From Verrucomicrobiota bacterium (GTDB lineage Bacteria; Verrucomicrobiota; Verrucomicrobiia; Limisphaerales; CANJXF01): a stretch of 64,000 bases of DNA. A model generated the notes under the pieces. The model made no database searches and was not told the origin of the DNA. It was given only the letters and a program-made list of their open reading frames with translations. Made by a program: the position numbers and the translations under genes. Below, one piece after another: positions 36,051 through 60,993 of this stretch (the stretch's first letter is position 1; each line of letters begins with the position of its first letter). The stretch spans positions 7,501 to 71,500 of the forward strand of contig JAYVSV010000098.1 of the NCBI GenBank assembly GCA_043775015.1, given 5' to 3'.

Positions 36051-36091
36051 AGGGTTCGAGATGTGACCCCCCCATTGGTTGCTATTGAGGA

Positions 36092-36445: not shown

Positions 36446-36717
36446 GACATGACGGCGCTGGCCACATCAGAGTTGCGTTGCAACTGGTGCAACTCGTGAT
36501 GCGCTAATGTAAGACCAATCCGATATTTGCGAGCGCCGGACAAAATTTCGGCCATGCTCGGCGTGATATAATTGTGGAATTCATCAGCGTAAATCCAGAA
36601 ATCGCGTCGCGCGGTGATCTGTTTGGCCTGACGGCTCATCGCCAACTGTTGAAACTTTGAAACGAGCAATGTGCCCAGCAGATAGGAACCATGTTGCAGT
36701 CGGCCATTGAAGCCTTT
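36429..36717 (-). pseudogene. Conjugative coupling/TraD-VirD4-like AAA ATPase, internal fragment
   Basis: ..LLGTLLVSKFQQLAMSRQ....RRDFWIYADEFHNYITPSMAEILSGARKYRIGLTLAHHELHQL contains a Walker-B region (DEF). It has no N- or C-terminal remainder. Confidence 0.55.
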
Positions 36718-36881
36718 GGTCGGATTTGTTCCAGGATTAGTTTTTGCGTGTTCGGCAAGGAGGGACCTGCGCGGTTGTGGTAATGGTTGTAGCCCACCTC
36801 CCACGCGCCGATCCGGTCGCGCGTTGCGGTGTTGTTATTGCACGTGCCTTGCATCGAGCCGGTGAGCAGTTGGGTGGCCAA

Positions 36882-37016
36882 AGACCAGTCGTCGGCGATG
36901 GCAAAGAGAATGTTGGGGCACGGCGGCGCGGCGGCAACCGTGGCGGCGCCCGCCCGCCAAACCGGCAGCAGCGCCAGCACGGCGGTCAACAGCCGACCAT
37001 TGAAAGTTTTTTCCAC
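36882..37016 (-). pseudogene. Sulfatase 5' fragment (signal peptide plus PNILFAIADDWS only)
   Basis: GTG-EKTFNGRLLTAVLALLPVWRAGAATVAAAPPCPNILFAIADDWS, after which the sequence is no longer sulfatase-like. Confidence 0.4.
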
Positions 37017-37121
37017 ATAATCGTCCGTCAACTTCGCCAGTTGGCGCGGTCACGGCAATACACCCGTTCGGGGAGGTTGCCGCCCGCCACGACAATAGGC
37101 AAACTGCCTGCAAATCAGTCT

Positions 37122-38552
37122 ATGATTTCAAATCACAAATGCCGCCGCTGGTTCTGCGGGTTGACCGTGGGCAGCCTCATCCTCGCCGCGTTCACGTCGG
37201 CGGCGGTGAAGCCCCCGCCGCCAAACATCATTTTAATTCTCGCCGACGATCTCGGCTACGGCGACATCGGTGTGTTCAACCAAAACACCCGCGCCGCCGC
37301 CGGCCATCCGGCCATTCTCACCCCGCGCCTGGATCGGATGGCCACCGAAGGCCGGCGGTTCACGCAATTTTACGCAACCCCCTCCTGTGCACCTTCCCGA
37401 GCCGCCCTGATGACGGGCCTGCACAACGGCCACACGGACATTCGCAGCAACGGTGAGAACCTCAACCTGGATCGCACCGTCCGGATTTTGCCCGCCTGGC
37501 TCCAGGCGGGCGGATATGCCACGGGTTGCTTCGGCAAATGGGGCTTGGGCGAACGTGATGACACGCTGCCCACACCCACCGCCGCCGGCCAGATCGCGGT
37601 CGGCGAGGCCATTCCCAACCGCAAGGGCTTCGATGAATTTTTTGGTTATCTCTCACACTCGGCGGCGCATTTTTCGTTCGCGCCAGAATTGCTCGCGGTG
37701 CGTGGTCGGCGTCTCTGGGACACCTTCGGCACCAACCTCGTCGCCATCGAACCGCCGGCGGCTCACACCCAGGATTTGTTTGCCGCGCGGGCGCTGGATT
37801 TCATCCAACGCCACCGGCGGGAACCGTTTTTTCTTTATCTGCCCTTCACCCTGCCGCACGCCAACGCAACGATGAATCGCCTCGACGCGCCCACAATTGA
37901 ACCGGCCTATCGCGACCAGCCATGGCCGGACTGCGAAAAAAAATTCGCCTCCCTCATCACGCGCCTGGACCAGCACATCGGCCAGATTCTGGACAAGCTC
38001 ATCGAACTCGGGCTGGCTGAAAATACTCTCGTGCTCGTGGCCAGCGACAACGGCGCCCACTACGCCGGTGGCCACGATCATCTTTTCTTCAATAGCAGCG
38101 GGCCGTTTCGCGACCGAAAATTTTCCCTGTATGAGGGCGGCGTCCATGTGCCGCTCCTGGCCTGGTGGCCGCAGCATATTCCTGCTGGCACCACCCAAGG
38201 ACAGGTGGCCGCGATTTGGGATTTATTGCCGACCTTTTGCGAACTGGCACGCGTGACGCCACCGCCGGAAATTGACGGACACTCCATCGTCTCCGCTTTA
38301 CTCGGACAACCCGTCCGCCCGGACCACCCGACCCATCTGTATTGGGAAATACCGCCCGCCCGTTCCAGTCCGGGCAGCCAGGCCAGCCGCCTTGGCGAAT
38401 GGAAAGCCGTCCGTCGCGGCACCAATGCGCTCGAACTTTACAACCTGTCCGCCGATCCCGGGGAAGCCACCAATGTTGCGGGCATCTATCCCGCCCAGGC
38501 GGAAAAAATGAATCTCCTCCAGAAAAAATCCACCCGCCCGCCCGCCCATTGA
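37122..38552 (+). CDS. Formylglycine-dependent (type I) sulfatase
   Basis: Signal peptide, PNIILILADDLGYGD, and SCAPSRAALMTG (CxPxR). Start trimmed from the 36744 ORF to the ATG at 37122. Confidence 0.9.
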   Translation: MISNHKCRRWFCGLTVGSLILAAFTSAAVKPPPPNIILILADDLGYGDIGVFNQNTRAAAGHPAILTPRLDRMATEGRRFTQFYATPSCAPSRAALMTGLHNGHTDIRSNGENLNLDRTVRILPAWLQAGGYATGCFGKWGLGERDDTLPTPTAAGQIAVGEAIPNRKGFDEFFGYLSHSAAHFSFAPELLAVRGRRLWDTFGTNLVAIEPPAAHTQDLFAARALDFIQRHRREPFFLYLPFTLPHANATMNRLDAPTIEPAYRDQPWPDCEKKFASLITRLDQHIGQILDKLIELGLAENTLVLVASDNGAHYAGGHDHLFFNSSGPFRDRKFSLYEGGVHVPLLAWWPQHIPAGTTQGQVAAIWDLLPTFCELARVTPPPEIDGHSIVSALLGQPVRPDHPTHLYWEIPPARSSPGSQASRLGEWKAVRRGTNALELYNLSADPGEATNVAGIYPAQAEKMNLLQKKSTRPPAH

Positions 38553-38720
38553 GGACTCCACAACGAGGATGAACTTTGACCACCCATCGCTGAGGTTCGC
38601 TTGCTCGCCTTCCCCGGCCCGCTTTCCACTACGCGGGCGGGACGGTTTCCGCGCACCTATTCAGGGGTATTGCGAACCCCATCGCTGGCGTCCAAACTAA
38701 AAGCCGTGTTCGAAAAAACC

Positions 38721-41700
38721 ATGAACGTCAGAGCCAGTTCGCCGTGGTTTTGGGCCGTAAAAAATATTTTAAGTAACTGCTGGCTGCCACTCATCGCCGC
38801 CAGCAGTTCCTTGCCCGCCGCGCCTGACCACGGCGTCATCCATTTTTACGAGCCAAAGGAAACGCACCGCGCCCAGTCCGACGCGCATGATTTCGTCGTG
38901 GCCGGTGCCGAAGGAATTTTTTGGTGGGGTGACCTCGAACGCGAAGAAGGCGTCTATGATTGGTCGCGCGTGGATGAAGAAATTGCCGCGTGGCAGCGAG
39001 GCGGCAAACGCTTGGACATCCGCCTTGGCACTGCGCACAACTCGCCCTTCATCGCACCGCAATGGCTCTTCGACCGCTACCACGTCCGCCGCATCGGGCG
39101 CGGACATTGGACGGATTGCGAAGCGAATCTCGGCGACTACGTTCTTGGCGCGGACGGCCAGCGCACGGACAAATTGCCGTTCGTTGTTGGCGGCAATTTT
39201 TCCATCGCCAGCGTCAAAACCGATGCCGGAAAGAAAAGTCTCTGCGCGCTTAATCCGCAAATTCACCTCGACGCCGATGGGTTTTACGCCGTGGAATTCG
39301 ATTGTCGCACCTCGCAGCCCGTCACGGGCTGGGTGGAAATCTCCAGCGCCCTCGGCCATTCCACGAATCGTCTGACCTACACGGCTACGGCGAATAATCC
39401 AGCCAGCCAGTCCTTCACCCTTCAGATGCCGCCGTTCGCCGATGGGCAAGTCCGCTTCGGCTACGACGGGCCAGGCACGCTGTCGCTCGACCATCTCAAC
39501 ATCATCCGACTTGTAGGCGAGCCGCCGACCCACACCAATGATTTTGAAAAATCCAACCGGGACTGGGAACTCCGCGCCGGGGCACAAATCACCCACAACA
39601 AAAAACAAGTCATTACCGGTCTCGCTTCGTTGTTGATCACCGGCGGCGAAACAAATTTGCCCAACGGCCTCCGCAATCACGCACCCGATTTCGCGCTCCA
39701 GCGTGGCGAAGGCTATTTGTTTGAATTGAATTACCACGCCCTCTCCGACGCAACGCTTCGCTATCGCATCATCAATCACGACGCACCTTACGATGTCCTC
39801 GACAAACAGACGCTAAACATTCCGGCGGGCAAATCCGGTCGCCAAACGTTTTATTATCCGGCCTTTCTCTGGCGGGATCATTGCGACGTGGAAATTAGCG
39901 TCGTTGGTTCCGGCGAAGTCGTGATTGACGATTTGAAATGGGTGCGCTGGAGCGACCGCGTCACTTGTTTCCCGGATTATTTCAATCCGGTGTTTCAGGA
40001 AAAATGGACGGCCTTCATCGCGAAGTTTGCCGAACGCTACGGCGAAAATCCCGCCATTGGCACGATCAGCGTCGGCGGTTTTGGCCGCTGGGAAGAAACC
40101 ATTCTCGACGATGACGCCTATGGTGGACTCGATGAACAATGGCTCGCGCGTGGCTTCACCCCGGAAAAATATCTGGCGCGCATCACCGACTGCCTTGATC
40201 TCTACCGCCGGTTGTTGCCGCACAAATCACTTCGCATCTGTCTCGCTTACGGACTTTACCAGAAGAATCATCGTGACTGGCTTTATCGCCGCGTCGCCCA
40301 GGCTGCCGTGGCACGCGGAGTCGGCCTCAAGCAAAATGGTTTGAGCGAAAAATGGGATATGTGGGACGACAACACCAGCGCGAGCTACCTGTGGAATCGT
40401 TACCGTTTCACGCCGGGCGTCACGCTCACACTGGAAACCGGCGGCCAAATTGCACGAGCCGGCCCGGGCGGCGGACACCCCATTTCTTTTTTGAATCGTG
40501 GAATGATTGATGGTGCGGATCTTTTGTTTCTCTACGGCAGCGACATTGTTGCCCAGCCCGTTCATCAATACCTCCGCTGGTTGACCGAGCAGATGGGCCG
40601 CCCTCTCATCAGCCGATTTTACTGTCGGCTCGGTGACACGTCGTTGAAATACGATCACTCGCCCGTGCCGCTGGAGTATCGCAATCTCTGGCTCGGGCTG
40701 CGCCAGTTTCAGGACGCCAACGCGCAGGTTATCTACACCAATCGACTCGGCGAAAAGTGCGCCGCCACCAGCCCCGGCAATCCGCAAATTATTTTCGACG
40801 TGGACGACCGCCAGCAGTATCACGGCATGAATGGCGTCGTGCTCTCCGTGCAATATCTCGATGAAGGTACGGACAAATTTGAGGTCAAAGTCTTCAATCA
40901 ATCGTCGCGCGCCTGGCAAAATCTTGGTGTCGTTCAAAAAACCGGCAGCGGCCAGTGGCGCACGGCAGCGTTCGCGCAGCCGGATTGGTGTCGCAGTTCG
41001 CGCAACAGCGGTGAGGATGACCATTCGGATGTGGTCATCAACGACTTGGGCGACGGCGCGGAATTCATCGCGAATTTGGAAATGAATTTTGTTCCTGCCC
41101 GCGAATGGCAACGCACACTGCTCGCCGCCAGCGAACCGGCGGCGGCGCACGAAGTTTTAACGAACATCCTCAGCCGCGAAATTGAAATCCCCGCTGGCCA
41201 GCCGTTGAACTTCGTCGCCGTGCCGCTCTGGACGGGCAGCCTCGAAGCCAACGGCCTGCGTGGTCACGTCTTCGCGCTGACGGAGGGCGGTGAGAAATTA
41301 GTCAGCGACAAGGAATACGCGCTGCCTGCCGACAAAGATTGGTTCGAGCTGCCCATCGTGCCAGAACCAAATTGCTCGCGCTACAGAATCGAGTTGAGCC
41401 AGCCGAAAGGTTCGGTCGGGTGGTATCGCGCCGCCGATGGCTCGCTGCCTTTCCGCGCGTGGCGTTATGCTGAAAGTGAAACCAAGGCGGCGAAAATAAT
41501 TTCACTGGGCGAAAAAATTGCGCTCAATAAATCCTTCAATTTCGCGGCGGACGAACCGTTTTTCGGCCTGCACTTGAATCTTGCGGGGACGAATCACGCT
41601 GTTATTACTGCCCGATTGCGACGTGAATTGCCCAGCGCGGGTTGGTCGCCTATCATCACCGAGCAAGTCGTCACGTTGAATCGTGACCAGCCAACGTCGC

Positions 41701-42311
41701 TGTGGTTCGAGCCGCAGACTGCTGGCAATTATCAAATCGAACTCACCACCACCAACCGTGATTCAACCGCAGCTACCTTGGTTCGCGGGCGCGTGGTGGA
41801 ACCAATTTTTCTAACCCGCCGCGAATCGCCGCAGCGTCCACTGCCATTTGCGCCGCGCGGCGGAATTGCTTTATTTCAACCGACGGCAAACGGTGAACCG
41901 GCATGGCAAAATTTCAGAGGGTTGAAAATTTTGAATCGTGAAATGAACACATTTTACGCGCAAGTCATCGCGTCTGACGCAGCGTTTGAATTCACGCTGG
42001 CTAAACCAGCGACGACAGCTACGAACCAGTTGCTCGCGCTCCAATTACGAAACGGCACAAGTGCGGGCTTGGCACGAATTTTTTGGGCTGGCGCGGGCGA
42101 GCCATTTGATCCGGTGCGCTCTGCGTGGATTCCGCTCGTGGCGAATGACTCCGAGTTGCGCGAATACCATTGCGAGCTCGGACTCGAGGCCAACTGGCGC
42201 GGCGACATCACTCGCCTCCGCATCGAACCCGCAACGGGACTGACCGAACGCGGCACGCTCAGCCTCGGCCCGATTCGTTTATTGAAGTCCACTGGTTTCC
42301 AGGCACTGTAA
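38721..42311 (+). CDS. Secreted 1196-aa glycoside-hydrolase-like protein: TIM-barrel halves separated by two jelly-roll inserts, with C-terminal beta-sandwich modules
   Basis: FWWGDLEREEGVYDWSRVDEEIAAWQRGGKRLDIRLGT and, about 330 aa later, FNPVFQEKW..FAERYGENPAIGTISVGGFGRWEE resemble GH42/DUF4832-type barrels. A CBM4/9-like segment lies between them. The functional call is tentative. Confidence 0.6.
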   Translation: MNVRASSPWFWAVKNILSNCWLPLIAASSSLPAAPDHGVIHFYEPKETHRAQSDAHDFVVAGAEGIFWWGDLEREEGVYDWSRVDEEIAAWQRGGKRLDIRLGTAHNSPFIAPQWLFDRYHVRRIGRGHWTDCEANLGDYVLGADGQRTDKLPFVVGGNFSIASVKTDAGKKSLCALNPQIHLDADGFYAVEFDCRTSQPVTGWVEISSALGHSTNRLTYTATANNPASQSFTLQMPPFADGQVRFGYDGPGTLSLDHLNIIRLVGEPPTHTNDFEKSNRDWELRAGAQITHNKKQVITGLASLLITGGETNLPNGLRNHAPDFALQRGEGYLFELNYHALSDATLRYRIINHDAPYDVLDKQTLNIPAGKSGRQTFYYPAFLWRDHCDVEISVVGSGEVVIDDLKWVRWSDRVTCFPDYFNPVFQEKWTAFIAKFAERYGENPAIGTISVGGFGRWEETILDDDAYGGLDEQWLARGFTPEKYLARITDCLDLYRRLLPHKSLRICLAYGLYQKNHRDWLYRRVAQAAVARGVGLKQNGLSEKWDMWDDNTSASYLWNRYRFTPGVTLTLETGGQIARAGPGGGHPISFLNRGMIDGADLLFLYGSDIVAQPVHQYLRWLTEQMGRPLISRFYCRLGDTSLKYDHSPVPLEYRNLWLGLRQFQDANAQVIYTNRLGEKCAATSPGNPQIIFDVDDRQQYHGMNGVVLSVQYLDEGTDKFEVKVFNQSSRAWQNLGVVQKTGSGQWRTAAFAQPDWCRSSRNSGEDDHSDVVINDLGDGAEFIANLEMNFVPAREWQRTLLAASEPAAAHEVLTNILSREIEIPAGQPLNFVAVPLWTGSLEANGLRGHVFALTEGGEKLVSDKEYALPADKDWFELPIVPEPNCSRYRIELSQPKGSVGWYRAADGSLPFRAWRYAESETKAAKIISLGEKIALNKSFNFAADEPFFGLHLNLAGTNHAVITARLRRELPSAGWSPIITEQVVTLNRDQPTSLWFEPQTAGNYQIELTTTNRDSTAATLVRGRVVEPIFLTRRESPQRPLPFAPRGGIALFQPTANGEPAWQNFRGLKILNREMNTFYAQVIASDAAFEFTLAKPATTATNQLLALQLRNGTSAGLARIFWAGAGEPFDPVRSAWIPLVANDSELREYHCELGLEANWRGDITRLRIEPATGLTERGTLSLGPIRLLKSTGFQAL

Positions 42312-42314
42312 TTT

Positions 42315-45300
42315 ATGAAGAATATTTCGACCATGCGAACGATAATCTGGTTGCCCAAGTCCCTCTGGCGCGCGCTCGCGGTTCTGTTGGCGACCGCGGC
42401 GCTGACCACCGCCTTGGCGGATCCGCTTGATGAAACGGCGCGCAACACCTTTCATCTTTCACCCATTGGCGTGTGGGATCAGCGCCCAGGCGGCACGAAC
42501 TCTGTGGTGGGCTATCGCTCGCGGATGTTGTCCCTGACGGGCGGAGTGATGCCCAAGAATGTGAAGGCGGGCGTCTCCTCCGGTCTGGAATTTCTCCAGA
42601 GCACACACGGTGGTTACTACGATTATCTTTTCAGCCCCGGGAAGGTTCTTGATTTCACAACCTACACGGTGGCGGAAATTGATTACGTGACGGGCGTGAT
42701 TATTTCCAACGACATCCCGTTTGGCGTCCATGTCAACGGCATGCCGTGGGCTGACAGCGCCATCCAGAGCGAAGACATCCTCCATAACTACCTGGAAAAA
42801 TTTGGCGGCGGCAGCTACCTGCAGGTGGATCGCCTGGGGCGCATCCGCACCGGCACCTCAACCGATGTGACCACGAACGAGGTTTTCTCCGCTTCGGACG
42901 CGCTCGAAATGCAAGTCACGCTCTCGCGCAACGCCACGCTGGTACAAGACTATGCCGGTCGCAATTGCCGCATCGCCATGCGGGTGCTGGGGTCACAACG
43001 GGAGCAGCATCCCGACTTAATCACGTTCGCCAGCATGTCCTCGGAGGTCGCCCAGAATATTCATGCGAACACTGAGTATTGCGATTACAGCTCGTGGTCG
43101 AAACAGGAGTTTCGTGATTGGTTGAGCGGAACAAATCTTTACGCCGGGCAAGCGCAGTATGCGAGTCTGACGAACTTTAACGCCGCGTTCAGCGGGGCGT
43201 CCGGATTTCCGTGGGCGTCCTGGGATGTCGTTCAGCCTCCGACCAACGTAAATTGGAGCACATTCACCGCCACCGGCCGCTGGTGGCGTAAGTGGCATGA
43301 CTTCCGCACCAATCAGGTCGGGCAGATGGTTCAGGCGCAAGTCGGGTGGTGTCGCGACGCGGGTTGGAATCCCGACTCGCTCTACGGCCATCAAATCCCC
43401 CTCGACCCCGCCAGCACTTCCGATGATGACCGAAAATACGCGTCACCCTGGACGACCACCTTCGTGAATGGCGCCGGCAATGGCATCACCACCTATTACG
43501 GCAATGCCTCCGCCACGAATATCTTCTCCGCGATTCGCGCCAACGACAAAAACTGGGGCATCTTTGAGTATAACCCGATCACCAACAGCGTCGCCGCCAA
43601 TCTCGCCGCGCTCGACACGGTCTGGAATTCCGGCGGACGCGTCATCGCCCCTTACACTTGGTGGGGCTTTGACACATACCAGATTTATGATCGGCCTTTG
43701 CAAACCGCGTTGTCGCAATTTATCTTCAATCATAGCAACCAGTCCTTCACCAACCTGGCGCCTTACGAAGTCAGCCCTGCCGCCCGCGACGTGATTTGGG
43801 CGATGAGTGAGAGTGACGACATTGAGAGTTCATCCGGGGTGAGCGCGCTGGTTTTCACCAATGGAATTTTGTCCGGTCAGATTACCAACGCCACGCCGAT
43901 GCTCTCCTTGGAATTCAACGAATCGCCGACGCGCTTTATTCTTTCCGACCAATACTACGCGGCCTCGTTTCGTTTCTACCTCAGCAATGCCCTGGTCGGC
44001 TTCGGCCAGATCGCCTGGGTGGATAACACCGGCGCGACCAATGCCGTCACGTTCCCCGCGCGCCCCGGCTGGAATGTTTACCGCGTCAATCTCGCCGAAA
44101 ATGCTGCGTGGCGAGAAAAGAAGATCCAAGCCCTCGAATTTCGACCGGCCTCGGCCAGTGGGAATTTCAGTCTCGATTGGTTCCGGCTCGAAGCCGCCCC
44201 CTGCTGGCACTTCGATGACGCGAACGAAATCTATGGCGTCAACGATGTGACCAACGCAACCATTGCGGGCGGCATCTTCAGCGGCACGAGCGGGCCGGAT
44301 GCGTATTTCTATTTCTCCACCGACAAGCGCAATGCAAGTGAGGATGCCGATCGCGCTTACGTGGATGCCAACACCTACAAGAAAGTTCGAGTGCGCCTGA
44401 CTTCTTCTACTGCGAGCACCGGGCAGATGTTCTGGTGGAAACGGGGCACTTCATTTTTCACCACCACTTTCGCTGTTGCTGCCGGCACCCAAACCTACGA
44501 GTTGGATCTGTCCGCCGATCCGAATTGGACGGGCGACATCACGCGCCTCCGACTTGATCCCGTCAACCAAGCGGGCATCGCGTTTGAGGTGGATTACCTT
44601 TCCGTCGCGCCAGTCATGCTCCCGCCGCGCATCGCCAACTCCGATCTCATCGTGAATTCTCCCGCGCCCGTTTTCCTGTGGGATGGCGCGTTCGAGCCGA
44701 ATCATTCCGGCGTCAGCTACACGCTGGAACTCTCCACGAATTTCTTTTTCACCAACGCGGTATTCGCGACGAACGGCTTGACCGGCAGCCGGCTGGTTTA
44801 CAACGGCACGCCGGTGCTGGACGGCCTCTACTGGTGGCGCATCCGCGCCCGCGACGCGGCGGGCAACCTCTCGCCGTGGGCCGTGCCGATGCCGATGTTT
44901 GTCCGCACCTGGAACTTCAACCAACTTGCGGACATCGCCTCCTCAAATCAATTTGGGGCCGCTGCCATCAACAGCGGAGTCTGGCAGGCGACGAGCAGCG
45001 GCAACGACCCGTATATGAATTTCAATACGGGCAGTCCCTCCAATCGCGGTGTCAACGCGGACCTTTACAATCGGTTTGTTTGCCGGGTGAAAGTGGCAAC
45101 GGGGGTAAATAATTTTGCGCAATTCTTTTGGTTTCCCAAATCCGGCGGGTTCGCTTTTACCAGTCCCACACTGCCCGCCGATAACGCGTGGCATGATCTG
45201 GATATTGATCTGAGCCAGAACGCGCAGTGGAAAGGGTATCAAGACTCGGTGCGGCTTGATCCGACTTCGTTGCCCGCCACACAAGTCTCGCTCGACTACG

Positions 45301-46934: not shown

Positions 46935-47006
46935 GGTTCTAACCTTGGCGCGCGCCTTGTGCCCAACCATTCGGATTCAGCGAATACCCGCGCGACTAAA
47001 TAACGG

Positions 47007-49235: not shown

Positions 49236-49298
49236 TTTGAGATTTTAACAAAAGTATTGTTAGCGGTTGCTTTTGGCAGCATCCGAATTGCGCCCCCG

Positions 49299-49376
49299 GG
49301 AGCGCGGACTTCAGCCCGCTGCAACGCCCACATTGCAGGCCGACGTGAAGCGGTCCCGCGTGCGGGACCGCGCTCC
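49299..49376. repeat. GC-rich compound hairpin sharing GGAGCGCGGAC with the 4.4-kb element
   Basis: ggagcgcgg (49299-49307) pairs with ccgcgctcc (49368-49376). Inner hairpins are ctgcaa..ttgcag and gtcccgc-gt-gcgggac. Confidence 0.7.
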
Positions 49377-49414
49377 GAAAGCGCTCACACCGTTCTGTTC
49401 CGCCGTGCCGCCGT

Positions 49415-52180: not shown

Positions 52181-52351
52181 GTGGAAATTCATTTTGGGGA
52201 TCAGTATAACCGTTTCATTGTTGAATCGTTGATTGGTTTGCCGATGACGGCTGGCATTGAAACAAGATCGCCACCTCGCTGCGAAATGCGAATTGCAGAA
52301 AAACCGCTCGGCTGACAGCAACTAAAAACTGGATTCTGGAATTGGGTCTTG

Positions 52352-54010: not shown

Positions 54011-54032
54011 AATTTTTTCTGAATGATGGAAT

Positions 54033-54060
54033 AAAAAAAGACCGGGCCGAAGCCCGGTCT
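54033..54060 (-). terminator. Rho-independent terminator after the LamG gene
   Basis: Minus strand reads agaccgggcttcggcccggtct followed by ttttttt. Confidence 0.8.
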
Positions 54061-54081
54061 TCTGATTGATCGAACCCGAGC

Positions 54082-56418
54082 TTACGGGATGCGGAGCCGA
54101 TAGAACTGGGCGCTGTTGGTGGCCGTAGTGTTCGTATAGCTCACCGAACCACCGTTGCCGACCAAGCCACCCAGGTAAGTCCACGTCGGCGCGGCAAGGT
54201 CGGTCTTGGAGTCCACCGCATAGAAGATTGGACTGACGGAATTCAGGTTGAAGCTGAAGTTTGAACCTGCAAGGGCAGGATTGAGGATCGTGGGCGCAGC
54301 CACGGTGAATCCGGGATCAAGCGACTCGAATTTGAAGTCGTCAAACTGCGCGAAGGCAGCGGTGGCAGAACCACCCGCGAAACAGTGGAGCGTGACGAAG
54401 TTGTTCACCTGTGCGGTCGAAAGCAGGTAAGCATCCGGCAGTGCGCCGCAACCGAGCGCCAACGGCTGACCGTTAATTTTGATGCGGAGGAGGTTGGTGC
54501 GCACCTCGAACTCGAAGGCGTAACTGGCCGCCACGGGAACACTGCCACTACCAGCGATACCGCTGGTGTTGGTCAGCCCGAGATAGCTCTGCCAGAGATA
54601 CCAGCGGCCATCACCGCTGAAGAAGTTGATGCCGGTGCCGCCGCCATCGGCGTCCGCTACGAAATGGGAAGGAGCGTTGTCGCGGAAGCGCGTGCCGATC
54701 CAAGAGTCATTGGATATGCCATTATTTGTTCCTTGCACGGTGTAGCTAATGCGGAAGCTGTTGAGATGCTCGTATTGGCGGAAGTCGCCGGTCGGTGAGG
54801 CCATGCCGATGGCTTGTCCACCGCCGGGCGAATTGGTCAGGAGCAAGGCGTTACCGGTGATCGAGACGGCGGAATTTAAGTTGCCATTGGTCGTCCAGGA
54901 AACCGGAGCCACAGGGCCGCTCTGCCGGGCGAGATTCAAGTTGAGATCGTTGGAGTCGGCGGTGTTGAAGCTGTCCAGCAATTTCAAAACGCTCGTCAGC
55001 ACCGGCAACGCTGCGGGCGGCCTGATCGTGGCGCTGAAGGCAAAGTTGTCGAAGGTGGCGCTGTTGTTGTTGTTATCGGATCCCAGCGAAAGCGTGATAT
55101 AGTTGGCCGAGGCACAGGGCAAGGTCCAGCTTCCGAGCAGCTCGCTGTTGACGAAATAAGTGATGACGTTGTTGGTGGCGATCAGTTCAACGTGATAAGG
55201 CAGGGTATTCGTGGCGGACAACTGACCAAAGGTCCAAGACGGGGGACCATTTTCAAAGCCGTGCGGAAAGACCAGGCTGGCACCGTTGGATCGGATGATG
55301 GTGTTGAATCCATCGCCCCAGATTGGTTGCGGGAGATCTATACCTTGTGGGGCGCTGCGGATGACGATGCCGGCCCAGCAGTCACCAACCTGGGTCAAGC
55401 TGGTGATGTCATACGACAGTTTGAAATTACCCGATTCGTTGGTGATGAAATTTACCTGCGGCGCAAATTCCACTGTCCTGAATCCGCTGAATCCAGAATC
55501 GATCTTGAGTTTAAGCTGGTTGTTGGTGATGGAGAGACTGTCCGCAGCGAATCCGGTGGTGAAATAGTTTGCTGTGGCGGCGGTGCCAGATTGGCGGGTG
55601 GCCAAATCCGCGTTGAGGTCCGTCGTATCCGCAGTGTTGAAATTATCGGAGAGGATCACGGGAATCCCGTATTTATTGAACAGGTAATCTTCGGTTGTGA
55701 TTTGGGCCGTCGTGCTCAGGTTGGTGTTGTAGATCAGAATCTCAGCAATATCGCCATTGAGGCCATAAGCGGTTTTGTTTTGCCGCGCACCGAACACCCA
55801 GCCGCTGATGTTGTTTGAAACGACAGTTCCTAGGGCTTTGGTTTCAAGCAATACTCCATTTTCATAGACTTTGATTGAGGTAGAATCCTCAACCACGGTA
55901 GCAATTTTCCAAGCACCCGTCGTGATTGGGGTGCCAGCACCAGCCGTGTTTGCTGCGCTTGTGAATAGATTGGTGGTTGTCGCACTCGCCAGGATATAAA
56001 GATTGGCGAAGCCGCTCGCCTGGTGGATGAGCTGGCAACGGGCAGTCGCTCCGGCGGGGAAGGTTGTTTTATAGACGATAATCGCAGTGAAGTTGGTGTA
56101 GGCGGAATTGAACGGCAGCGGGCTTTGCAGGTAGTTCAAGTTTGCGCTGACCAAACCATCCCCCGTGAAGTGCGCCACGGCGTAGCCGTTCAGGGCGTTT
56201 GTCGAATAGGTCGGCTGCTTGATGCCGGTGTTGTTGGTGGCGTGGTAGTTGCCCCCAGACGAGTCCGTCCAAAATGAAATTGGACTGGCGGCAACCGTGT
56301 TGGTAAGCCCCTCCGGCTTGAGCCAGAGTTGCAGGCCATTGGTGGTTTGGGCGTTCAGCGAACTACTTAAGCACGATAGCAAGATCGCGAGCGAAGTGAT
56401 TAATGATGGATTTTTCAT
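54082..56418 (-). CDS. Secreted LamG (concanavalin-like) domain protein with two D.FNTAD..DLN modules and a C-terminal FYRL domain
   Basis: Signal peptide. LQLWLKPEG...GDIAEILIYN is the LamG/Laminin_G_3 pattern. It ends ..SAQFYRLRIP. Confidence 0.7.
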   Translation of the reverse strand: MKNPSLITSLAILLSCLSSSLNAQTTNGLQLWLKPEGLTNTVAASPISFWTDSSGGNYHATNNTGIKQPTYSTNALNGYAVAHFTGDGLVSANLNYLQSPLPFNSAYTNFTAIIVYKTTFPAGATARCQLIHQASGFANLYILASATTTNLFTSAANTAGAGTPITTGAWKIATVVEDSTSIKVYENGVLLETKALGTVVSNNISGWVFGARQNKTAYGLNGDIAEILIYNTNLSTTAQITTEDYLFNKYGIPVILSDNFNTADTTDLNADLATRQSGTAATANYFTTGFAADSLSITNNQLKLKIDSGFSGFRTVEFAPQVNFITNESGNFKLSYDITSLTQVGDCWAGIVIRSAPQGIDLPQPIWGDGFNTIIRSNGASLVFPHGFENGPPSWTFGQLSATNTLPYHVELIATNNVITYFVNSELLGSWTLPCASANYITLSLGSDNNNNSATFDNFAFSATIRPPAALPVLTSVLKLLDSFNTADSNDLNLNLARQSGPVAPVSWTTNGNLNSAVSITGNALLLTNSPGGGQAIGMASPTGDFRQYEHLNSFRISYTVQGTNNGISNDSWIGTRFRDNAPSHFVADADGGGTGINFFSGDGRWYLWQSYLGLTNTSGIAGSGSVPVAASYAFEFEVRTNLLRIKINGQPLALGCGALPDAYLLSTAQVNNFVTLHCFAGGSATAAFAQFDDFKFESLDPGFTVAAPTILNPALAGSNFSFNLNSVSPIFYAVDSKTDLAAPTWTYLGGLVGNGGSVSYTNTTATNSAQFYRLRIP

Positions 56419-56477
56419 GGTTGGTTCAGGTTTTTTATTTTATTTTTTTATGCAGGTAGAGACTCAGGACGCCGAAA

Positions 56478-57305
56478 TTAATACCACTTAGATACAAAGT
56501 TGTTGGTTTGAGTAAGCGAACGGCTTTCAACATGGCCGTCCATAAAGACAACATTTACTCGTCCGCCGGGGGAGGTCTTGCCGTGCTTAAAACCAGCGCG
56601 ATAAATCGGCTTCCCGCCGAAGTAAATATACGCATCAAAGAATCTGCCTTCCTTCCACGGCATCGCCACAAAGCCGACATCATAAGAAACATCGGTGATC
56701 AAAAACGTATCGGATGGCTTAATGACGGAGCTGATCTTGGCGGCCTTGGAATAAACATAAGCGGCTTGGTCAGTGACATCTTTAGTCGGATCGACGGCGA
56801 TACCCGTGGCGCTGTTCATGCCGTAGCTCACCTTCCAGAGAGAAGGCCCGAACGGGCCAGGCGGAAAAGCTGGATTGTTCAACGGCTCTTTCAGGCGATT
56901 GGGGCAGGTAAAGACACTTTTGGCAAAATCGCTGGTCTCAGTGGAGTTGCCCGCACTGAACTCACCCTTCTTGATGTACGGCGTGAGCAGATACATCCAA
57001 TTGTTCTTGTTTGGGTCGAGCACGGCGGCAGCGTGCGCAAAGGGAAGTCCGTCACTGTTGTCATCTGCGTACAAAATAGTAGCGAGACCACACTGGCGCA
57101 GATTGTTTTTGCAGGCGATGCCACTGGCCTTGTCTTTTGCCTTGCTTAAAGCGGGCAGCAGCAGACCGGCAAGAATGGCAATGATGGCGATGACCACCAA
57201 CAGTTCGATCAACGTAAATGCCCGCCGACTGCGAAAGCTGGCTCTGGAGATTTTGAAAATCAACATGCTCCCAAAAAAATCATAACGTTGGCGGTGGTGG
57301 TTCAT
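56478..57305 (-). CDS. Prepilin-leader (type II secretion pseudopilin-like, DUF1559-type) protein
   Basis: [31 protein letters not shown], with a C-terminal [10 protein letters not shown]. The start may be the Met at 57266. Confidence 0.85.
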
Positions 57306-57372
57306 TAAACTTAATTGAATGTGAGAAAATACTCCCCCTCATGTTTCCCAACAATACCCCCAAAAGGGTGTA

Positions 57373-57993
57373 TCATTCGCGGAACTTCATCACCGCCTCG
57401 GTGCGTGAGCGCACATGGAGCTTGGCGTAGATGTTTTTCAAATAGGCATGAATCGTTTCCACCGACAGCCCCAGCGCCTCGGCCACCTCTTTGTTGCTGT
57501 AACCCTGCGCCACATAGCTGAGAACATCGGTTTCGCGCTTGGAAAGATTTTCCGCCGTCTTGCCTGACGCATCCTTTTGAAAAGATTGCACGACTTTGCG
57601 CGCGATGTAATTCGACATTGGTGCGCCTCCGTGTTGCACATCTTGAATGGCCTGGAGAATTTCATCCGCCGGCGAACGCTTGAGCAGGTAGCCGTTGGCG
57701 CCCATTTGCAGTGCGCGAAAAATCCGGTCGCTGTCGTCATACACCGTGAGCATGATGATGTGGGTTTTCGGCAGAAGCTGCTTCAACTGCCGCGTGCATT
57801 CCACGCCGGACATCTTCGGCAGGTTGATGTCCATTAGCACCACGTCCGGCTTTAATTTTGGCATCCCTTCAATCGCCGCTTCGCCGTTGGAAAAAACACC
57901 CAGACATTTGAACCCCGTCTTTTCTCGCAACAACGCCTGCAAGTTTTCCCGCGTCTTGAAATCGTCTTCCACAATGGCAATCGTGATGGGCAT
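57373..57993 (-). CDS. NarL/LuxR-family response regulator
   Basis: Receiver domain (EDD..., DVVLMDINLP, ..MLTVY..) plus a LuxR HTH (LSKRETDVLSYVAQGYSNKEVAEALGLSVETIHAYLKNIY). Confidence 0.93.
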   Translation of the reverse strand: MPITIAIVEDDFKTRENLQALLREKTGFKCLGVFSNGEAAIEGMPKLKPDVVLMDINLPKMSGVECTRQLKQLLPKTHIIMLTVYDDSDRIFRALQMGANGYLLKRSPADEILQAIQDVQHGGAPMSNYIARKVVQSFQKDASGKTAENLSKRETDVLSYVAQGYSNKEVAEALGLSVETIHAYLKNIYAKLHVRSRTEAVMKFRE

Positions 57994-57999
57994 AAAAAA

Positions 58000-60993
58000 T
58001 CAGGCGTTGAGGCTTTTCAACGGCACGGTGAAAAATAATTCCGTGCCGGTGGCGGGCGCGCTCTCGACCCGCAAATTTCCGCCGAGCGCGGCCAGTCGTT
58101 CGCGGATGTTGGCGAGGCCGTCCTGGCCGGGTTGCACCCCGGTCAGCGGCAAGCCCCGGCCATTGTCGGAGATGGTCACCAGCAAATCAGTTTCTGAAAG
58201 TTGCAGCCGAATCCACAGTTCCGTCGCGCCCGAATGGCGGGCCACGTTGTTGAGCGCTTCCTTCAACGCCAGAAACAAATGGTGCCGCGCCTCGGTCGTC
58301 ATCGGGTGCGCGGGCAAATCCGCCGGAATGTCCAAGCGACAACGAATGGCCGTGGGCTGAAAAAATTCGCCGGCGAAATGCGCGATGTAGTTGGCGAAAT
58401 GTTCCAGCGAATCGTTCTGCGGGTTCAACGCCCAAACGATGGCGTCCATCGCAGTCAAACTTTGCCGCGCGCTGACCGCAATTTTTTCCAAGTCCACCGT
58501 CACGGCTTCCGGCTGTGAAATATGTTTCCGTCCCAAATCCGCCAGCCAGCCAATGCTCGTGAGATTCGCGCCCAACTCATCGTGAATATCTCGGGCAATC
58601 CGGCCGCGCTCCTGTTCCAACGCATGTTGCTGTTCCAAAATTTCAATCCGCCGCTGCAACCGCCGCAACGCAAACCAGCGCACAATCAACGCCATCAGGA
58701 CGATGCTCGCCGCGACGGCCAGCGGCGGAAACCACCACGTCTGCCAAAAAAATGGCGCGACCACCAACGCGATGCCTGCCCCTTGCTCATTCCAAGTGCC
58801 GTCCGCATTGCTCGCGATGACCCGAAAGCGATGCGCCCCCGGCGACACGTTCGTATAAGTGGCGACGGCTTCCGCACTCGGCGGACTCCAGTCCGCGTTT
58901 TCGCCACCCAGCTTGTGACGGTAACGCACGCGTTCTGGCGCATCGAACTCCGGCGCGGAAAATTGAAATTCCAAAATCCGCACGCCCGCCGCCAGTTCCA
59001 AATCATTCTGCAATGGCTGGGATTCGCCGTTGCGCCGCACCCCCTCGATAAAAATGCTCGGCGGCTCATGATTACGCTTCATCGCGGTCGGCCAAAAACT
59101 GACCGCGCCTTTCACGCTCGCAAACCAGAATTGCCCGGCGCGCGTGGCGAGGGCGGCGGGTTGAAATTCTCCGTTGAATTGAAAACCGTTCAGCCCGTCA
59201 CTGTGGCCGTAGCTGAACGTTGGCAACGAAGTCCGCTTACCTTCGACGTAAGCATTCAGTTCGTGCAACTCCACGCGGAACAATCCACGGCTCGTGCCAC
59301 ACCACATCCAGCCGGAACTGTCGAGCAGCAAACTTTGAACGGCGTCATCCGGCAAGCCTGCCGCCGCCGTCACGTTTTTAAAGCGTCCATTTTTGAATCG
59401 CACCAAACCCTCGCCGGCCGTGCCGAGCCAGATGGCGCCATCATCGGCGGCCAGCATCGCGCGGATGCTTTCGCCCGCGGAATGATCGTGAGGAAAATTT
59501 TGAAATCTTCCGTTGACCAGCTTGGCCAGCGCGCCGTCTGCCGTGCCGACCCAGATGTTGCCGACGGAATCTTCCGCCACATCACGCACGGCCTTGTCCG
59601 GCAAGCCGTCGTTGACTGTGTAATGTTTCAACCGTTCGCCTTCCAGGCAATACAAGCCGTCCAAATACGATCCCGCCCAGACCCGGCCAGAACTATCCAC
59701 GCGCAGGCAATTCACAAAATGAATCGGCATCCCCAAATTCTGGGTAAAATTGCGGAAATGCCCGTCGCGCCAATAATAAAGTCCTTCGTTCTGCGTCCCA
59801 ATCCACACGCCGCCCTCGGCATCCGCCGCGAGGCACAGCGGATTGATTTCCGGCCAGCCGTCCGCCGCGCCAAAAACTTTTACCACGCCGTTGCTCCAAT
59901 AGCTCAAGCCCTGGTCTTGCGTGGAAATCCAAATCCGGTTTTGCGTGTCCTCCGCAAAAGAAAAAACGCGGTCGTTGGGCAGGCCACGATGACTGTTCAA
60001 CACTTTGAACTGACGCGCCCGGATCAAGTCCAGCCCGCCGCCCTGCGTGCCGACCCACAAATTGCCCGTGCGATCTTCCGTCAGGCACAAAATATTATTG
60101 TGCGAGGTCGGCACGGATTGAAAACGCCCGCCGAACCAGCGGAACAACCCTTTCGCGCTCGTGCCGACCCAGACTGCGCCCGCGCGGTCTTCCAGCAGGT
60201 CGCGGACATTCGCCTCGCCCACCAGCCACGGCAGCGTGGTGATTTCAGTCAGTGCCCCACCCGACTCCACGCGATAAAGACTTCCGGACGTGGACATCCA
60301 AACGCCGCCCGCCCGCGCCGGTGTGATATAAAGTGACGCCTGCAAATTCGTCGCCAAAGCGATAAATTTATTATCCCGAAAAAATCCCAACGTGCCGCCG
60401 CTCGCCAGCCAGACTGTGTTCTCGCTGTCCGTGACCAGCGTGGAAGTTCGCAATGGCCCCGGCACGGGAATGCCCAGAGATTTCATCGTGCCGGCGAAAA
60501 GTTGATCCACCTCGCCTTCCAGCGAAACCGTCCAAATGCGACCGATAGAATCCGAACAGAAACTGTAAGCGCGATGCCGATCCGGCTGGCCATCCACCGG
60601 CAATGCCTCGAAAATTCCGGCTTGCCGCGTCAGCACGCCGCCGGACTCCAGCGCCACTAACACCTTGCCGTCCGGTGCGTGGCTCATGCGCCACACGCTC
60701 ACTTTGGTCGCACCGGTCAGGCCGGGCGTGAAGCCGGAGACAAACTTGCGCCCATCAAAACGTACCAGCCCGTTGCGCGTGCCGACCCAGAGAAAACCAT
60801 CCGCCGTCTGCGCCACGCCATGCACATCGTTGTTCGGTAGGCCTTCCTCGGTTTGCCAGCTTTGATAAAAAAATCCGTTGGAAATTTCCACGGCATTGGT
60901 CTCACCGGTGGCGTGGGCGTATCTGGGAAAAAGCAGTCCCAGCCCGACCAGTAACACCAGCCCGACTGAAAAAATAAATCGGTGCAATAACAT
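58000..60993 (-). CDS. Sensor histidine kinase with periplasmic two-component-regulator beta-propeller and Y_Y_Y domains
   Basis: Repeated ..G.LW.GT..GL..F.. propeller blades, then YRHKLGGENADWS (Y_Y_Y-like), one TM, the HisKA_3 H-box RIARDIHDELGANL, and the HATPase motifs NVARHSGA / DNGRGL. Confidence 0.9.
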   Translation of the reverse strand: MLLHRFIFSVGLVLLVGLGLLFPRYAHATGETNAVEISNGFFYQSWQTEEGLPNNDVHGVAQTADGFLWVGTRNGLVRFDGRKFVSGFTPGLTGATKVSVWRMSHAPDGKVLVALESGGVLTRQAGIFEALPVDGQPDRHRAYSFCSDSIGRIWTVSLEGEVDQLFAGTMKSLGIPVPGPLRTSTLVTDSENTVWLASGGTLGFFRDNKFIALATNLQASLYITPARAGGVWMSTSGSLYRVESGGALTEITTLPWLVGEANVRDLLEDRAGAVWVGTSAKGLFRWFGGRFQSVPTSHNNILCLTEDRTGNLWVGTQGGGLDLIRARQFKVLNSHRGLPNDRVFSFAEDTQNRIWISTQDQGLSYWSNGVVKVFGAADGWPEINPLCLAADAEGGVWIGTQNEGLYYWRDGHFRNFTQNLGMPIHFVNCLRVDSSGRVWAGSYLDGLYCLEGERLKHYTVNDGLPDKAVRDVAEDSVGNIWVGTADGALAKLVNGRFQNFPHDHSAGESIRAMLAADDGAIWLGTAGEGLVRFKNGRFKNVTAAAGLPDDAVQSLLLDSSGWMWCGTSRGLFRVELHELNAYVEGKRTSLPTFSYGHSDGLNGFQFNGEFQPAALATRAGQFWFASVKGAVSFWPTAMKRNHEPPSIFIEGVRRNGESQPLQNDLELAAGVRILEFQFSAPEFDAPERVRYRHKLGGENADWSPPSAEAVATYTNVSPGAHRFRVIASNADGTWNEQGAGIALVVAPFFWQTWWFPPLAVAASIVLMALIVRWFALRRLQRRIEILEQQHALEQERGRIARDIHDELGANLTSIGWLADLGRKHISQPEAVTVDLEKIAVSARQSLTAMDAIVWALNPQNDSLEHFANYIAHFAGEFFQPTAIRCRLDIPADLPAHPMTTEARHHLFLALKEALNNVARHSGATELWIRLQLSETDLLVTISDNGRGLPLTGVQPGQDGLANIRERLAALGGNLRVESAPATGTELFFTVPLKSLNA

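Follow-up and report, generated by a model that had tools for sequence, protein, structure and literature searches.

The 64-kb stretch of DNA that we analysed (the window) contains a ~27-kb genomic island integrated into a tRNA-Gly(CCC) gene of a Limisphaerales-like verrucomicrobium. In our view its genes probably form an exported system under two-component control that degrades a rhamnose-rich sulfated glycan, and represent a local version of a modular polysaccharide-utilisation cluster of the PVC type. Several of its enzymes belong to undescribed families. The features discussed below are as follows.

36073–36124, strand not assigned: left direct repeat, att-like; partial copy of tRNA-Gly (3′ half) plus 19 nt downstream
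36397–36804, minus: remnant, fragment of a large mobile-element-associated protein (phrog_5156)
37122–38552, plus: exported S1 (formylglycine-type) sulfatase, 476 aa (PF00884, 6e-48; SGSH_C; CAPSR motif)
38721–42311, plus: P2, exported multi-module protein, 1196 aa (AF2 model, pLDDT 85.4, pTM 0.83)
42315–46934, plus: P3, exported multi-module protein, 1539 aa (AF2 model, pLDDT 86.6, pTM 0.86)
47007–49235, minus: Ceh742, exported CehA/McbA-family metallohydrolase, 742 aa (NF038032, 166 bits)
49415–52192, minus: exported CehA/McbA-family metallohydrolase, ~925 aa, with N-terminal ‘RLDP’ module (NF038032, 236 bits)
52352–54010, minus: exported CehA/McbA-family metallohydrolase, ~552 aa (NF038032, 111 bits)
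54036–54063, minus: intrinsic terminator (12-bp stem with 7 GC pairs, 4-nt loop, T-run)
54082–56418, minus: exported LamG/concanavalin-like lectin-fold protein, 778 aa (PF13385, Laminin_G_3, 8e-10)
56478–57305, minus: prepilin-type (pseudopilin-like) DUF1559/HX9DG protein (N_methyl, 5e-8; DUF1559, 6e-5; TIGR02532)
57373–57993, minus: response regulator (RR), NarL/LuxR-type, REC and GerE domains (PF00072, 6e-29; PF00196, 2e-20)
58000–60993, minus: sensor histidine kinase (HK; Reg_prop, 1e-47; Y_Y_Y; HisKA_3; HATPase_c)
61502–62524, plus: exported nitrilase-superfamily (CN_hydrolase) enzyme, 340 aa (PF00795, 3e-27)
63082–63174, minus: tRNA-Gly(CCC) (63101–63174) and right direct repeat (63082–63133)

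The island borders, at 36.1 and 63.1 kb, are set by a 52-nt direct repeat which holds the 3′ half of the tRNA-Gly gene and whose two copies are 88% identical. The island begins at the left copy, and immediately to the right of this copy the GC content steps up from 0.52 to 0.57–0.60. The right end is formed by the tRNA gene, detected by both ARAGORN and Rfam, together with the second copy. The repeat and the GC shift support the horizontal acquisition proposed in the initial annotation. The left end of the island also contains gene fragments; the one at 36397–36804 corresponds to positions 630–705 of the 824 in the phrog_5156 profile (E 2e-10) and had no match in the Pfam search.

All seven minus-strand genes (60993 to 47007) and three plus-strand genes (37122 to 46934) described in the initial annotation are present, with gaps of 6 nt between HK and RR and 3 nt between P2 and P3. 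The sulfatase motif also reads as given, C-A-P-S-R in the translation, and every structural protein has a hydrophobic N-terminus, as judged by eye and with a Kyte–Doolittle scan, in agreement with the claimed signal peptides. The reading frame of the ~552-aa metallohydrolase runs to 54184 in the ORF list, and its signal peptide begins at 54010. The strong terminator reported previously lies within 3 nt of its earlier placement; it is the strongest within 36–56 kb and closes the HK–RR–pilin–LamG transcription unit. The extent of the cluster, on the other hand, had been drawn too short, leaving out the CN_hydrolase gene, which is divergent from the HK gene and belongs to the same system.

Both giant proteins are predicted with high confidence in the AF2 models to comprise (β/α)8 barrels followed by CBM-like β-sandwiches. 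The barrels are of the hydrolase type in both models (pLDDT 85–87), in line with the earlier description of the proteins as GH-like, and the proteins do not resemble adhesins. The P2 barrel is split (aa ~38–126 and 416–625) by inserted β-sandwich structure of ~270 residues, and five to six β-sandwich domains lie downstream of it, the last being an ‘RLDP’ module (aa 1051–1188). In P3 a GH42-like barrel (aa ~80–490) is followed by four ‘RLDP’ modules, Ig-like repeats, a cadherin-like/Big_9 domain (Pfam matches to Big_9 and Cadherin_4/5) and a C-terminal domain of ~75 aa. The modelled P3 barrel is matched best by GH42 (Foldseek hits to 4uoz_A, rmsd 5.9 over 479 columns, and 5xb7); searches against solved structures and Pfam families gave no significant sequence match for this barrel. 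The P2 profile matches the GH42/GH35 β2–α2 motif (E 1e-4), over ~50 residues only, and its ‘W..iEp.eG.YdW’ sequence in this motif is also found in GH42. Homology between the P2 and P3 barrels is undetectable. Two glutamates are invariant in each family, Glu459 and Glu572 among 22 homologues of P2 and Glu244 and Glu418 across those of P3. Strand maps of the models place them at the ends of strands corresponding to β4 and β7, the positions expected for catalytic residues. The predicted architecture thus resembles that of the GH42 (clan GH-A) β-galactosidases/α-L-arabinopyranosidases, but the canonical Asn-Glu acid/base motif is missing from both proteins and the P2 barrel is interrupted. P2 and P3 represent two families for which neither Pfam nor NCBIfam has a model; to our knowledge, no activity is known for either. 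The earlier suggestion that the catalytic components lack characterised relatives holds for P2 and P3, but not for the HxH paralogues, which have distant characterised members in the CehA/McbA family.

The ‘RLDP’ module (~135 aa) has no Pfam model and is common to P2, P3 and the ~925-aa metallohydrolase, which matches the module profile at 7e-45. It is contained in more than 4000 protein clusters, with other carriers including GH5, GH28, GH99, β-helix and CE-type proteins. The three metallohydrolases are distant paralogues (about 25% identity), and all score above the NF038032 cut-off of 80 bits. No other member of the cluster is as widely conserved as Ceh742, which has 188 full-length homologues across PVC phyla and an invariant GWYSGDDHxH motif, Glu420, His428, His465, Asp487 and Asp518. 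Orthologues of the ~925-aa paralogue (84–89%) occur in L007 and L013, and those of the ~552-aa paralogue (45–94%) in L013–L018, L030 and L035. Those CehA/McbA enzymes that have been characterised are carbamate esterases of the periplasm (PMC8292978). With these carbaryl/carbofuran hydrolases the island proteins share the NF038032 assignment, the HxH motif with further conserved His, Asp and Glu residues, and export; they differ in being distant in sequence, in being encoded in PVC glycan loci rather than in xenobiotic-degradation transposons, and in the CBM-like module carried by one of them. The closest solved relatives of the CN_hydrolase are N-carbamoyl-D-amino-acid hydrolases (7.5e-9), and those of the sulfatase are the carbohydrate sulfatases 7an1/7ana (4e-69) and carrageenan sulfatases.

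The HK consists of periplasmic Reg_prop β-propellers (the internal repeats D1, D2 and D6 are propeller blades) and a Y_Y_Y domain, a transmembrane segment, and then HisKA_3 and HATPase_c. The initial annotation likened it to the Bacteroides hybrid two-component sensors that control polysaccharide-utilisation loci. The Reg_prop/Y_Y_Y part of this comparison stands, as does the proximity to glycan-degrading enzymes and sulfatases; the kinase itself, however, is of the classical type, without a fused receiver or AraC domain and with a separate NarL/LuxR regulator, and the SusC/SusD pair of the Bacteroides loci is absent. The initial annotation placed the pilin-like protein in the position that SusC/D would have in Bacteroidota; the protein is co-conserved with the cluster. 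It scores 18.1 bits against HX9DG, slightly below the cut-off of 19, and we found no functional data on the DUF1559 family in the literature. Pilin-like proteins are also encoded beside glycan-foraging genes in the mucin-utilisation loci of the verrucomicrobium Akkermansia (PMC13174399), although these are of the Amuc_1102 type with PilM, whereas the island encodes a DUF1559/HX9DG prepilin.

The cluster genes are found together in related Verrucomicrobiota (L011, L016/L018 and L090/L091), in keeping with the initial annotation. On a 2.6-Mb metagenome contig (L011), orthologues of P2, P3, Ceh742, LamG, pilin, RR and HK occur together at 54–82% identity (82% for RR). The same set is present in Reactor_maxbin.083 (L016/L018) and in part in L007 and L013, while L090/L091 have the order RR–HK–pilin–LamG–P3...GH78; LamG orthologues adjoin the pilin and two-component genes in L011, L018 and L090/L091. 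In related Verrucomicrobiota, GH78 and GH106 α-L-rhamnosidase genes sit between those of P2 and P3. Six independent neighbourhoods of P2 homologues were compared; in five (L002, L005, L007, L008 and L009; L003 is the exception) the homologue is next to GH78 and/or GH106, and GH39, GH36, GH129 and sugar ABC transporters are also nearby. Homologues of P3 adjoin GH78, GH106, sulfatases, GH2 or GH28-like genes. One P3 homologue is naturally fused to a GH78 domain (P0087). This fusion and the rhamnosidases in the orthologous clusters indicate that the substrate is most likely a heteropolysaccharide that contains rhamnose and is probably sulfated. The original proposal of a glycan-processing regulon is broadly supported and can be made more precise.

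Published verrucomicrobial loci for sulfated fucose/rhamnose algal glycans also place GH78/GH106 amid sulfatases, GH36 and GH2 (Orellana et al., 2021, PMC8857213). Those PUL-like clusters belong to the same phylum, lack SusC/D and have exported hydrolases beside S1 sulfatases, and the orthologues of the island cluster resemble them in having sulfatases, GH36 and GH2 around the rhamnosidases. Unlike them, the island copy is tRNA-flanked and has no CAZy-recognisable hydrolase, its presumed depolymerases being P2 and P3; it brings in the CehA-type metallohydrolases, the nitrilase-type enzyme and a two-component system of its own with a propeller sensor.

In the scheme that we favour, the double-propeller/Y_Y_Y domain of HK would bind an oligosaccharide freed from the target glycan, and HK would phosphorylate the NarL-type regulator, activating the cluster. 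At the cell envelope, the LamG lectin-fold and DUF1559 pilin-like proteins may capture the glycan or present it. P2 and P3, with their clan-GH-A-like barrels, glutamate pairs and CBM-like modules, would cut its backbone or side chains, the S1 sulfatase would take off sulfate, and the three metallohydrolases and the nitrilase-superfamily hydrolase may strip other, ester- or amide-linked, non-glycosidic substituents. We count several observations against this degradation system: P2 and P3 lack the Asn-Glu motif and any known activity, P3 homologues in three loci lie amid housekeeping genes, no operator-like motif common to the eight upstream regions was found, and the Ceh742/CN_hydrolase pair mostly occurs without P2, P3 or rhamnosidases. 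In addition, the island copy has no canonical glycoside hydrolase, transporter or sugar-catabolic gene, and GH78/GH106 are absent from the whole 64-kb window.

The cadherin- and Ig-like domains of P3 and the PEP-CTERM proteins encoded within the clusters of relatives are also compatible with a cell-surface role. The cluster might then build, remodel or anchor the exopolysaccharide or adhesive layer of the cell itself, the giants being adhesins or EPS-trimming enzymes, and the pilin-like and lectin-fold proteins and the missing transporter and catabolic genes would fit. We consider this unlikely: the cluster contains no glycosyltransferase, polymerase, flippase or exosortase, and the loci of relatives include exo-acting GH78/GH106, sulfatases, sugar ABC transporters and LacI/AraC regulators, which are typical of catabolic loci.

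It also seems rather improbable that two functions are mixed in the island, with the metallohydrolases and CN_hydrolase acting on substrates other than glycans (for example natural carbamates, esters and amides, or further nitrogen compounds) and only loosely co-located with the glycan genes. The carbamate esterase and carbamoylase relationships noted above, and the many PVC loci with the Ceh742/CN_hydrolase pair but not P2 and P3, would suit such an arrangement. CN_hydrolase is the most frequent neighbour of Ceh742 across PVC genomes, its orthologues (63–74%) lying within 1–2 kb of a Ceh742 orthologue in 11 loci, one of them planctomycete. Nevertheless, Ceh742 is syntenic with P2 and/or P3 in eight loci (L002, L003, L007, L011, L016, L023, L026 and L048), the ~925-aa paralogue carries the CBM-like module of P2 and P3, and the genes that recur beside the pair encode β-helix proteins with the ‘RLDP’ module, sulfatases, a GDSL-like hydrolase and Gfo/Idh/MocA oxidoreductases. 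Finally, the GH78, GH106, PEP-CTERM protein and β-helix partner of relatives are missing from the island copy, which, with the fragments at its left end, could indicate a decaying remnant of a fuller cluster that has lost its rhamnosidases and no longer works. This is very improbable, as all 11 reading frames are intact (the longest of 1539 codons), the predicted catalytic and metal-binding residues are conserved, the P2–P3 junction is a clean 3-nt gap, and the same sequence was independently assembled from another sample.

Our ORF map, domain scans and terminator scan reproduced the gene layout described in the initial annotation. Its observation is confirmed and its interpretation is supported overall, with corrections to the kinase type, the enzyme families and the extent of the cluster. 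The best-supported reading is that the cluster encodes an exported system for degrading a polysaccharide, controlled by a two-component pair, for which we infer the regulation, the substrate and all of the activities. The features are as follows.

Features of the cluster
37122–38552, plus strand: sulfatase (PF00884, 6e-48; CAPSR motif)
38721–42311, plus strand: P2, giant exported protein of 1196 aa
42315–46934, plus strand: P3, giant exported protein of 1539 aa, starting 3 nt after P2
41871–42308 (P2), 43800–45758 (P3) and 51047–51436, minus strand (925-aa metallohydrolase): 'RLDP' module
47007–49235, minus strand: Ceh742, metallohydrolase of 742 aa, past the terminator
49415–52192, minus strand: 925-aa metallohydrolase paralogue, past the terminator
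52352–54010, minus strand: 552-aa metallohydrolase paralogue, past the terminator
54036–54063: terminator with a 12-bp stem and T-run, none stronger at 36–56 kb in the terminator scan
54082–56418, minus strand: LamG, Laminin_G_3 protein of 778 aa
56478–57305, minus strand: prepilin-type N_methyl/DUF1559 (pilin-like) protein
57373–57993, minus strand: REC+GerE response regulator, 6 nt downstream of the kinase gene
58000–60993, minus strand: histidine kinase of 997 aa with many Reg_prop repeats, Y_Y_Y, HisKA_3 and HATPase_c
61502–62524, divergent from the kinase gene: CN_hydrolase (nitrilase-superfamily) orthologue (PF00795, 3e-27)

All eleven cluster genes are enclosed in an island bounded by a 52-nt direct repeat (36073–36124 and 63082–63133, 88% identity), the right-hand copy of which is the 3' half of tRNA-Gly(CCC) (63101–63174, minus strand) together with 19 nt downstream. 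The GC content is 0.57–0.60 between the repeats compared with about 0.52 outside. The tRNA-Gly repeat and the deviant composition bear out the horizontal acquisition that had been proposed. No intact integrase gene was confirmed in the island, and an Rfam scan returned two tRNAs and nothing else. We note gene debris at the left end (36221–37031), in which a 135-aa fragment matches phrog_5156 (2e-10) and a minus-strand fragment starts, by eye only, like a second sulfatase ('PNILFAIADDWS'). A 92-aa ORF at 36221–36499, taken by eye for an integrase N-terminus, was matched by nothing in Pfam, in PHROGs or in a tblastn search against plasmids. Assembly of run SRR23617268 gave the identical P3 sequence as well.

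The periplasmic part of the kinase matches Reg_prop (1e-47) and Y_Y_Y (1e-7), which is the sensor module of the hybrid two-component systems (HTCS) of Bacteroides to which the kinase had been likened. The likeness holds for the propellers and Y_Y_Y, but not for the fused receiver and AraC-type DNA-binding domains: the polypeptide stops after HATPase_c and the REC+GerE regulator is encoded by a gene of its own, so that a Bacteroides-type hybrid is rejected. Polysaccharide-utilization loci of Bacteroidota carry adjacent genes for a SusC-like TonB-dependent transporter and a SusD-like protein, whereas domain scans found neither in any of the eleven cluster genes, in agreement with the claim of SusC/D independence. 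Every exported candidate starts with a hydrophobic N-terminus, as the signal peptides claimed for the structural proteins would require. The pilin-like protein has a prepilin cleavage/methylation motif at its N-terminus (PF07963, 5e-8; TIGR02532, 3e-7); Verru_Chthon cassette protein D (TIGR02596) was considered for it and rejected because the score, 19.5 bits, falls short of the cut-off of 70. A literature search found next to no studies of the DUF1559 family, and the Akkermansia MUL loci offer a loose precedent for such a protein in a verrucomicrobial glycan-foraging locus (PMC13174399). Among 14-mers with up to three mismatches, no shared operator was found in at least five of the eight upstream regions. 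Comparison of P3 with LamG gave no meaningful similarity beyond a weak C-terminal match (pairwise E 0.008) between domains of ~75 aa (P3, 46710–46934; LamG, 54082–54310, minus strand). Both domains finish with (F/Y)YR(L/F)..P, and on this likeness they may serve both proteins for sorting or anchoring.

Full-length homologues of P2 number only 26 and come almost entirely from verrucomicrobial MAGs; P3 has at least 75 across the PVC phyla. The AlphaFold model of P2, a confident one (pLDDT 85.4, pTM 0.83), contains an alternating β/α barrel, identified from its strand pattern (residues 38–126 and 416–625), which is interrupted by ~270 residues of β-sandwich and followed by further C-terminal β-sandwich domains. 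A Foldseek search with the whole protein cannot classify the barrel alone because β-sandwich matches dominate it (Cry toxins, GH101 and CBM22, with low TM-scores). Residues 1–770 of P3 likewise gave a confident model, with pLDDT 86.6 and pTM 0.86, the barrel of which superposes best with the GH42 enzymes 4uoz_A (r.m.s.d. 5.9, 479 columns) and 5xb7, while its β-sandwiches resemble SGBP-B and CBM6/22/35-type modules in Foldseek. An adhesin or S-layer fold devoid of a barrel, which had been named as the outcome that would overturn the enzymatic reading, is thus not what the models contain.

Membership of GH42 was considered for both proteins. Both models show a (β/α)8 barrel, the fold of GH42 and clan GH-A, and the P2 family profile matches the β2-α2 motif of GH42/GH35 β-galactosidases (E 1e-4). 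In GH42 and clan GH-A the catalytic acid/base lies on β4, within an Asn-Glu pair, and the nucleophile Glu on β7. Two glutamates are invariant in each family, E459 ('GGFGRWEE') and E572 ('TLETGG') in P2 and E244 and E418 in P3 (at the ends of strands 236–242 and 414–420), and by strand pattern they lie at strand ends that would correspond to β4 and β7; the Asn-Glu motif is absent. PF02449 reaches only 22.5 bits in P2, over ~50 of 376 positions; P3 matches no family model, and a P3 profile found nothing meaningful in the PDB. On these profile comparisons neither P2 nor P3 can be assigned to GH42. That the two are paralogues is likewise rejected, since profile–profile comparison aligned only a module that they share, and the barrels are not detectably homologous to each other.

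This 'RLDP' module is a β-sandwich of ~135 aa ending '...NW.G.ItrLRlDP...', found once in P2, four times in P3 and once in the 925-aa metallohydrolase. Domain scans found no Pfam or NCBIfam model that covers it. A search of 1.84 billion proteins with a profile of the six copies matched 4010 representatives at E ≤ 1e-3, of which 1388 also passed E ≤ 1e-10, often with several copies in one protein. Of 48 sampled carriers the majority have no Pfam domain at all; the others bear Beta_helix, GH5, GH28, GH99, an SASA-type esterase, CBM_4_9 or a T9SS sorting tail. To judge from its distribution, it looks as one would expect of a carbohydrate-binding module not yet described.

The catalytic components had been ascribed to uncharacterised families, which stands for the unclassified P2 and P3 but not for the three HxH metallohydrolases. 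These match the CehA/McbA family NF038032 at 166, 236 and 111 bits (NCBIfam curated cut-off 80), share only about 25% pairwise identity and gave no match in a Pfam scan. The characterised members of the family are exported carbamate esterases, and in CehA the HxH pair and two more histidines are essential (PMC8292978). The phrase 'CehA/McbA family' was absent from the literature searched. For Ceh742, 188 full-length homologues were found, spread over Verrucomicrobiota, Planctomycetota, Omnitrophota and other groups; its closest genomic relative (85%) is in a Limisphaerales MAG. Invariant among its homologues are GWYSGDDHxH, E420, H428, H465, D487 and D518; H356, H358, H428 and H465 are invariant in all 21 homologues compared, a likeness to CehA that is drawn at the level of the motif. 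PDB sequence searches with the 742-aa and 925-aa proteins and with the 21-sequence profile gave nothing meaningful.

The claimed CxPxR sulfatase is identified as an S1 formylglycine-dependent enzyme, with 164 bits for PF00884 (cut-off 25) and a formylglycine motif (C/S-x-P-x-R) that reads C-A-P-S-R within 'TPSCAPSRAALMTG'. Its nearest solved relatives are 7an1/7ana and carrageenan sulfatases. The island of the window has no FGE-sulfatase-domain gene (PF03781), and the sulfatase-maturing enzyme must therefore be encoded elsewhere. Such genes do lie beside the cluster in two relatives, L003 (2375–4179, overlapping the CN_hydrolase gene) and L011 (24463–24632).

Searching species-representative genomes with a Ceh742 profile gave 76 loci, the neighbouring ORFs of which were clustered without prior assumptions. 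The commonest neighbour is an exported CN_hydrolase (17 loci), the orthologues of which (63–74% identity) lie within 1–2 kb of Ceh742 in 11 loci, that of the planctomycete Stieleria mannarensis among them. The cluster thus extends beyond the interval initially annotated, to the CN_hydrolase gene. Its product scores 96 bits for PF00795 (cut-off 23.2), carries the Glu-Lys-Cys triad in the motifs 'FPEY', 'HYKMH' and 'TCYDG', and has N-carbamoyl-D-amino-acid hydrolases as its nearest solved relatives. S1 sulfatases and right-handed β-helix proteins of ~1100 aa bearing the 'RLDP' module recur in 12 loci each. PEP-CTERM proteins, DUF1559 pilins, Gfo/Idh/MocA oxidoreductases, a GDSL-like hydrolase, HisKA_3 kinases with NarL regulators and ECF sigma factor/FecR-lectin pairs also recur. 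Outside the Limisphaerales-like clade Ceh742 is mostly found apart from P2 or P3.

Genes beside the P2 homologue in loci of relatives
L002: GH78 and GH106
L003: CN_hydrolase, FGE-sulfatase-domain gene and two CehA-like genes
L005: GH106 and GH39
L007: GH78 and GH106
L008 (spirochaete): GH106, GH78-like gene, GH36 and ABC transporter components
L009: GH78-like gene, GH36 and GH129

Among the relatives, L011, which lies on a 2.6-Mb contig, has the fullest version of the cluster. One strand carries P2 (63%), GH78, PEP-CTERM, GerE, GH106 and P3 (64%); the converging strand carries Ceh742 (76%), a remnant of the 552-aa paralogue, LamG (54%), the pilin (69%), the response regulator (82%) and the kinase (60%). 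The apparent remnant, a 90-aa ORF at 16883–17155, matches the C-terminus of the 552-aa protein of the window at 56% identity, an indication that the cluster both gains and loses paralogues. L016/L018 hold P2, two Ceh742-type genes, the 552-aa paralogue, LamG, pilin, regulator, kinase and CN_hydrolase, and L090/L091 have regulator, kinase, pilin, LamG and P3 in succession and then GH78; with L011, these loci show the cluster genes to be co-conserved, as had been predicted. GH106, GH78 and three sulfatases flank the P3 homologue of Tichowtungia aerotolerans, L094 reads LamG-P3-sulfatase-GH2-sulfatase, and in L093 P3 adjoins a GH28-like gene. In the JGI metagenome protein P0087 (1779 aa) a GH78 six-hairpin rhamnosidase domain (residues 352–678) is naturally fused to a P3-like region of barrel and modules (residues 777–1760, 43% identity). 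Three P3 homologues are surrounded by housekeeping genes, and the entire 64 kb of the window contains no GH78, GH106 or anything similar. In L016 (13485–16925), L003 (6134–9577) and L007 (314–3877) a protein of ~1150–1190 aa is encoded upstream of the P2 homologue; it is a right-handed β-helix (PF13229) in L016, where it also bears the 'RLDP' module, and in L003, and has no Pfam match in L007. The window lacks this protein, and the sulfatase occupies its place.

Published verrucomicrobial loci have sulfatases, GH36 and GH2 around GH78/GH106 (PMC8857213). Because the cluster in relatives goes with rhamnosidases, these data together point to a rhamnose-containing sulfated glycan as the substrate. 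In the proposed scheme the propeller/Y_Y_Y kinase and NarL-type regulator would detect a fragment of the glycan and activate the genes, the polymer would be bound or presented by LamG and the pilin-like protein, and P2 and P3 would cut the glycosidic bonds. Sulfate and other ester- or amide-linked groups would be taken off by the sulfatase, the three metallohydrolases and the CN_hydrolase. A fuller proposal links three claims and is, as a whole, tentative and rather unlikely: that P2 and P3 are two new GH families with clan-GH-A-like barrels acting on rhamnose-rich sulfated glycans, that 'RLDP' is an undescribed CBM family present in thousands of proteins, and that the exported CehA-like/nitrilase-like pair strips ester- or amide-linked decorations from polysaccharides throughout the PVC bacteria. 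If it is true, the kinase–regulator–pilin–LamG operon would be a sensing and capture device replacing SusC/D.

PVC bacteria play a major part in degrading recalcitrant sulfated polysaccharides, and much of the machinery that they use for it is annotated as hypothetical. The locus is of a type already known, the verrucomicrobial SusC/D-less polysaccharide locus, and we do not expect a new principle from it; the novelty rests in its components, chiefly the two barrel families, the widespread unmodelled CBM-like module and the conserved metallohydrolase/nitrilase pair. With its relatives it joins five items to which no part in glycan turnover has been assigned: the two families of unclassified barrel enzymes, the module that lacks a model yet occurs in more than 4000 protein clusters, a family of which only pesticide hydrolases are known, a nitrilase-type enzyme that is exported, and a pilin-like protein. 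The conserved synteny with GH78/GH106 gives a concrete substrate class, and the small conserved core offers tractable expression targets. What it could yield is new families of CAZymes and CBMs, together with an early clue to SusC/D-free glycan sensing and capture in Verrucomicrobiota.

Outside the island, among ORFs with no Pfam match, a sequence of ~60–85 nt occurs twice about 700 nt apart (32231–32289/32922–32980 and 32266–32291/32980–33005), the copies being 85–88% identical.
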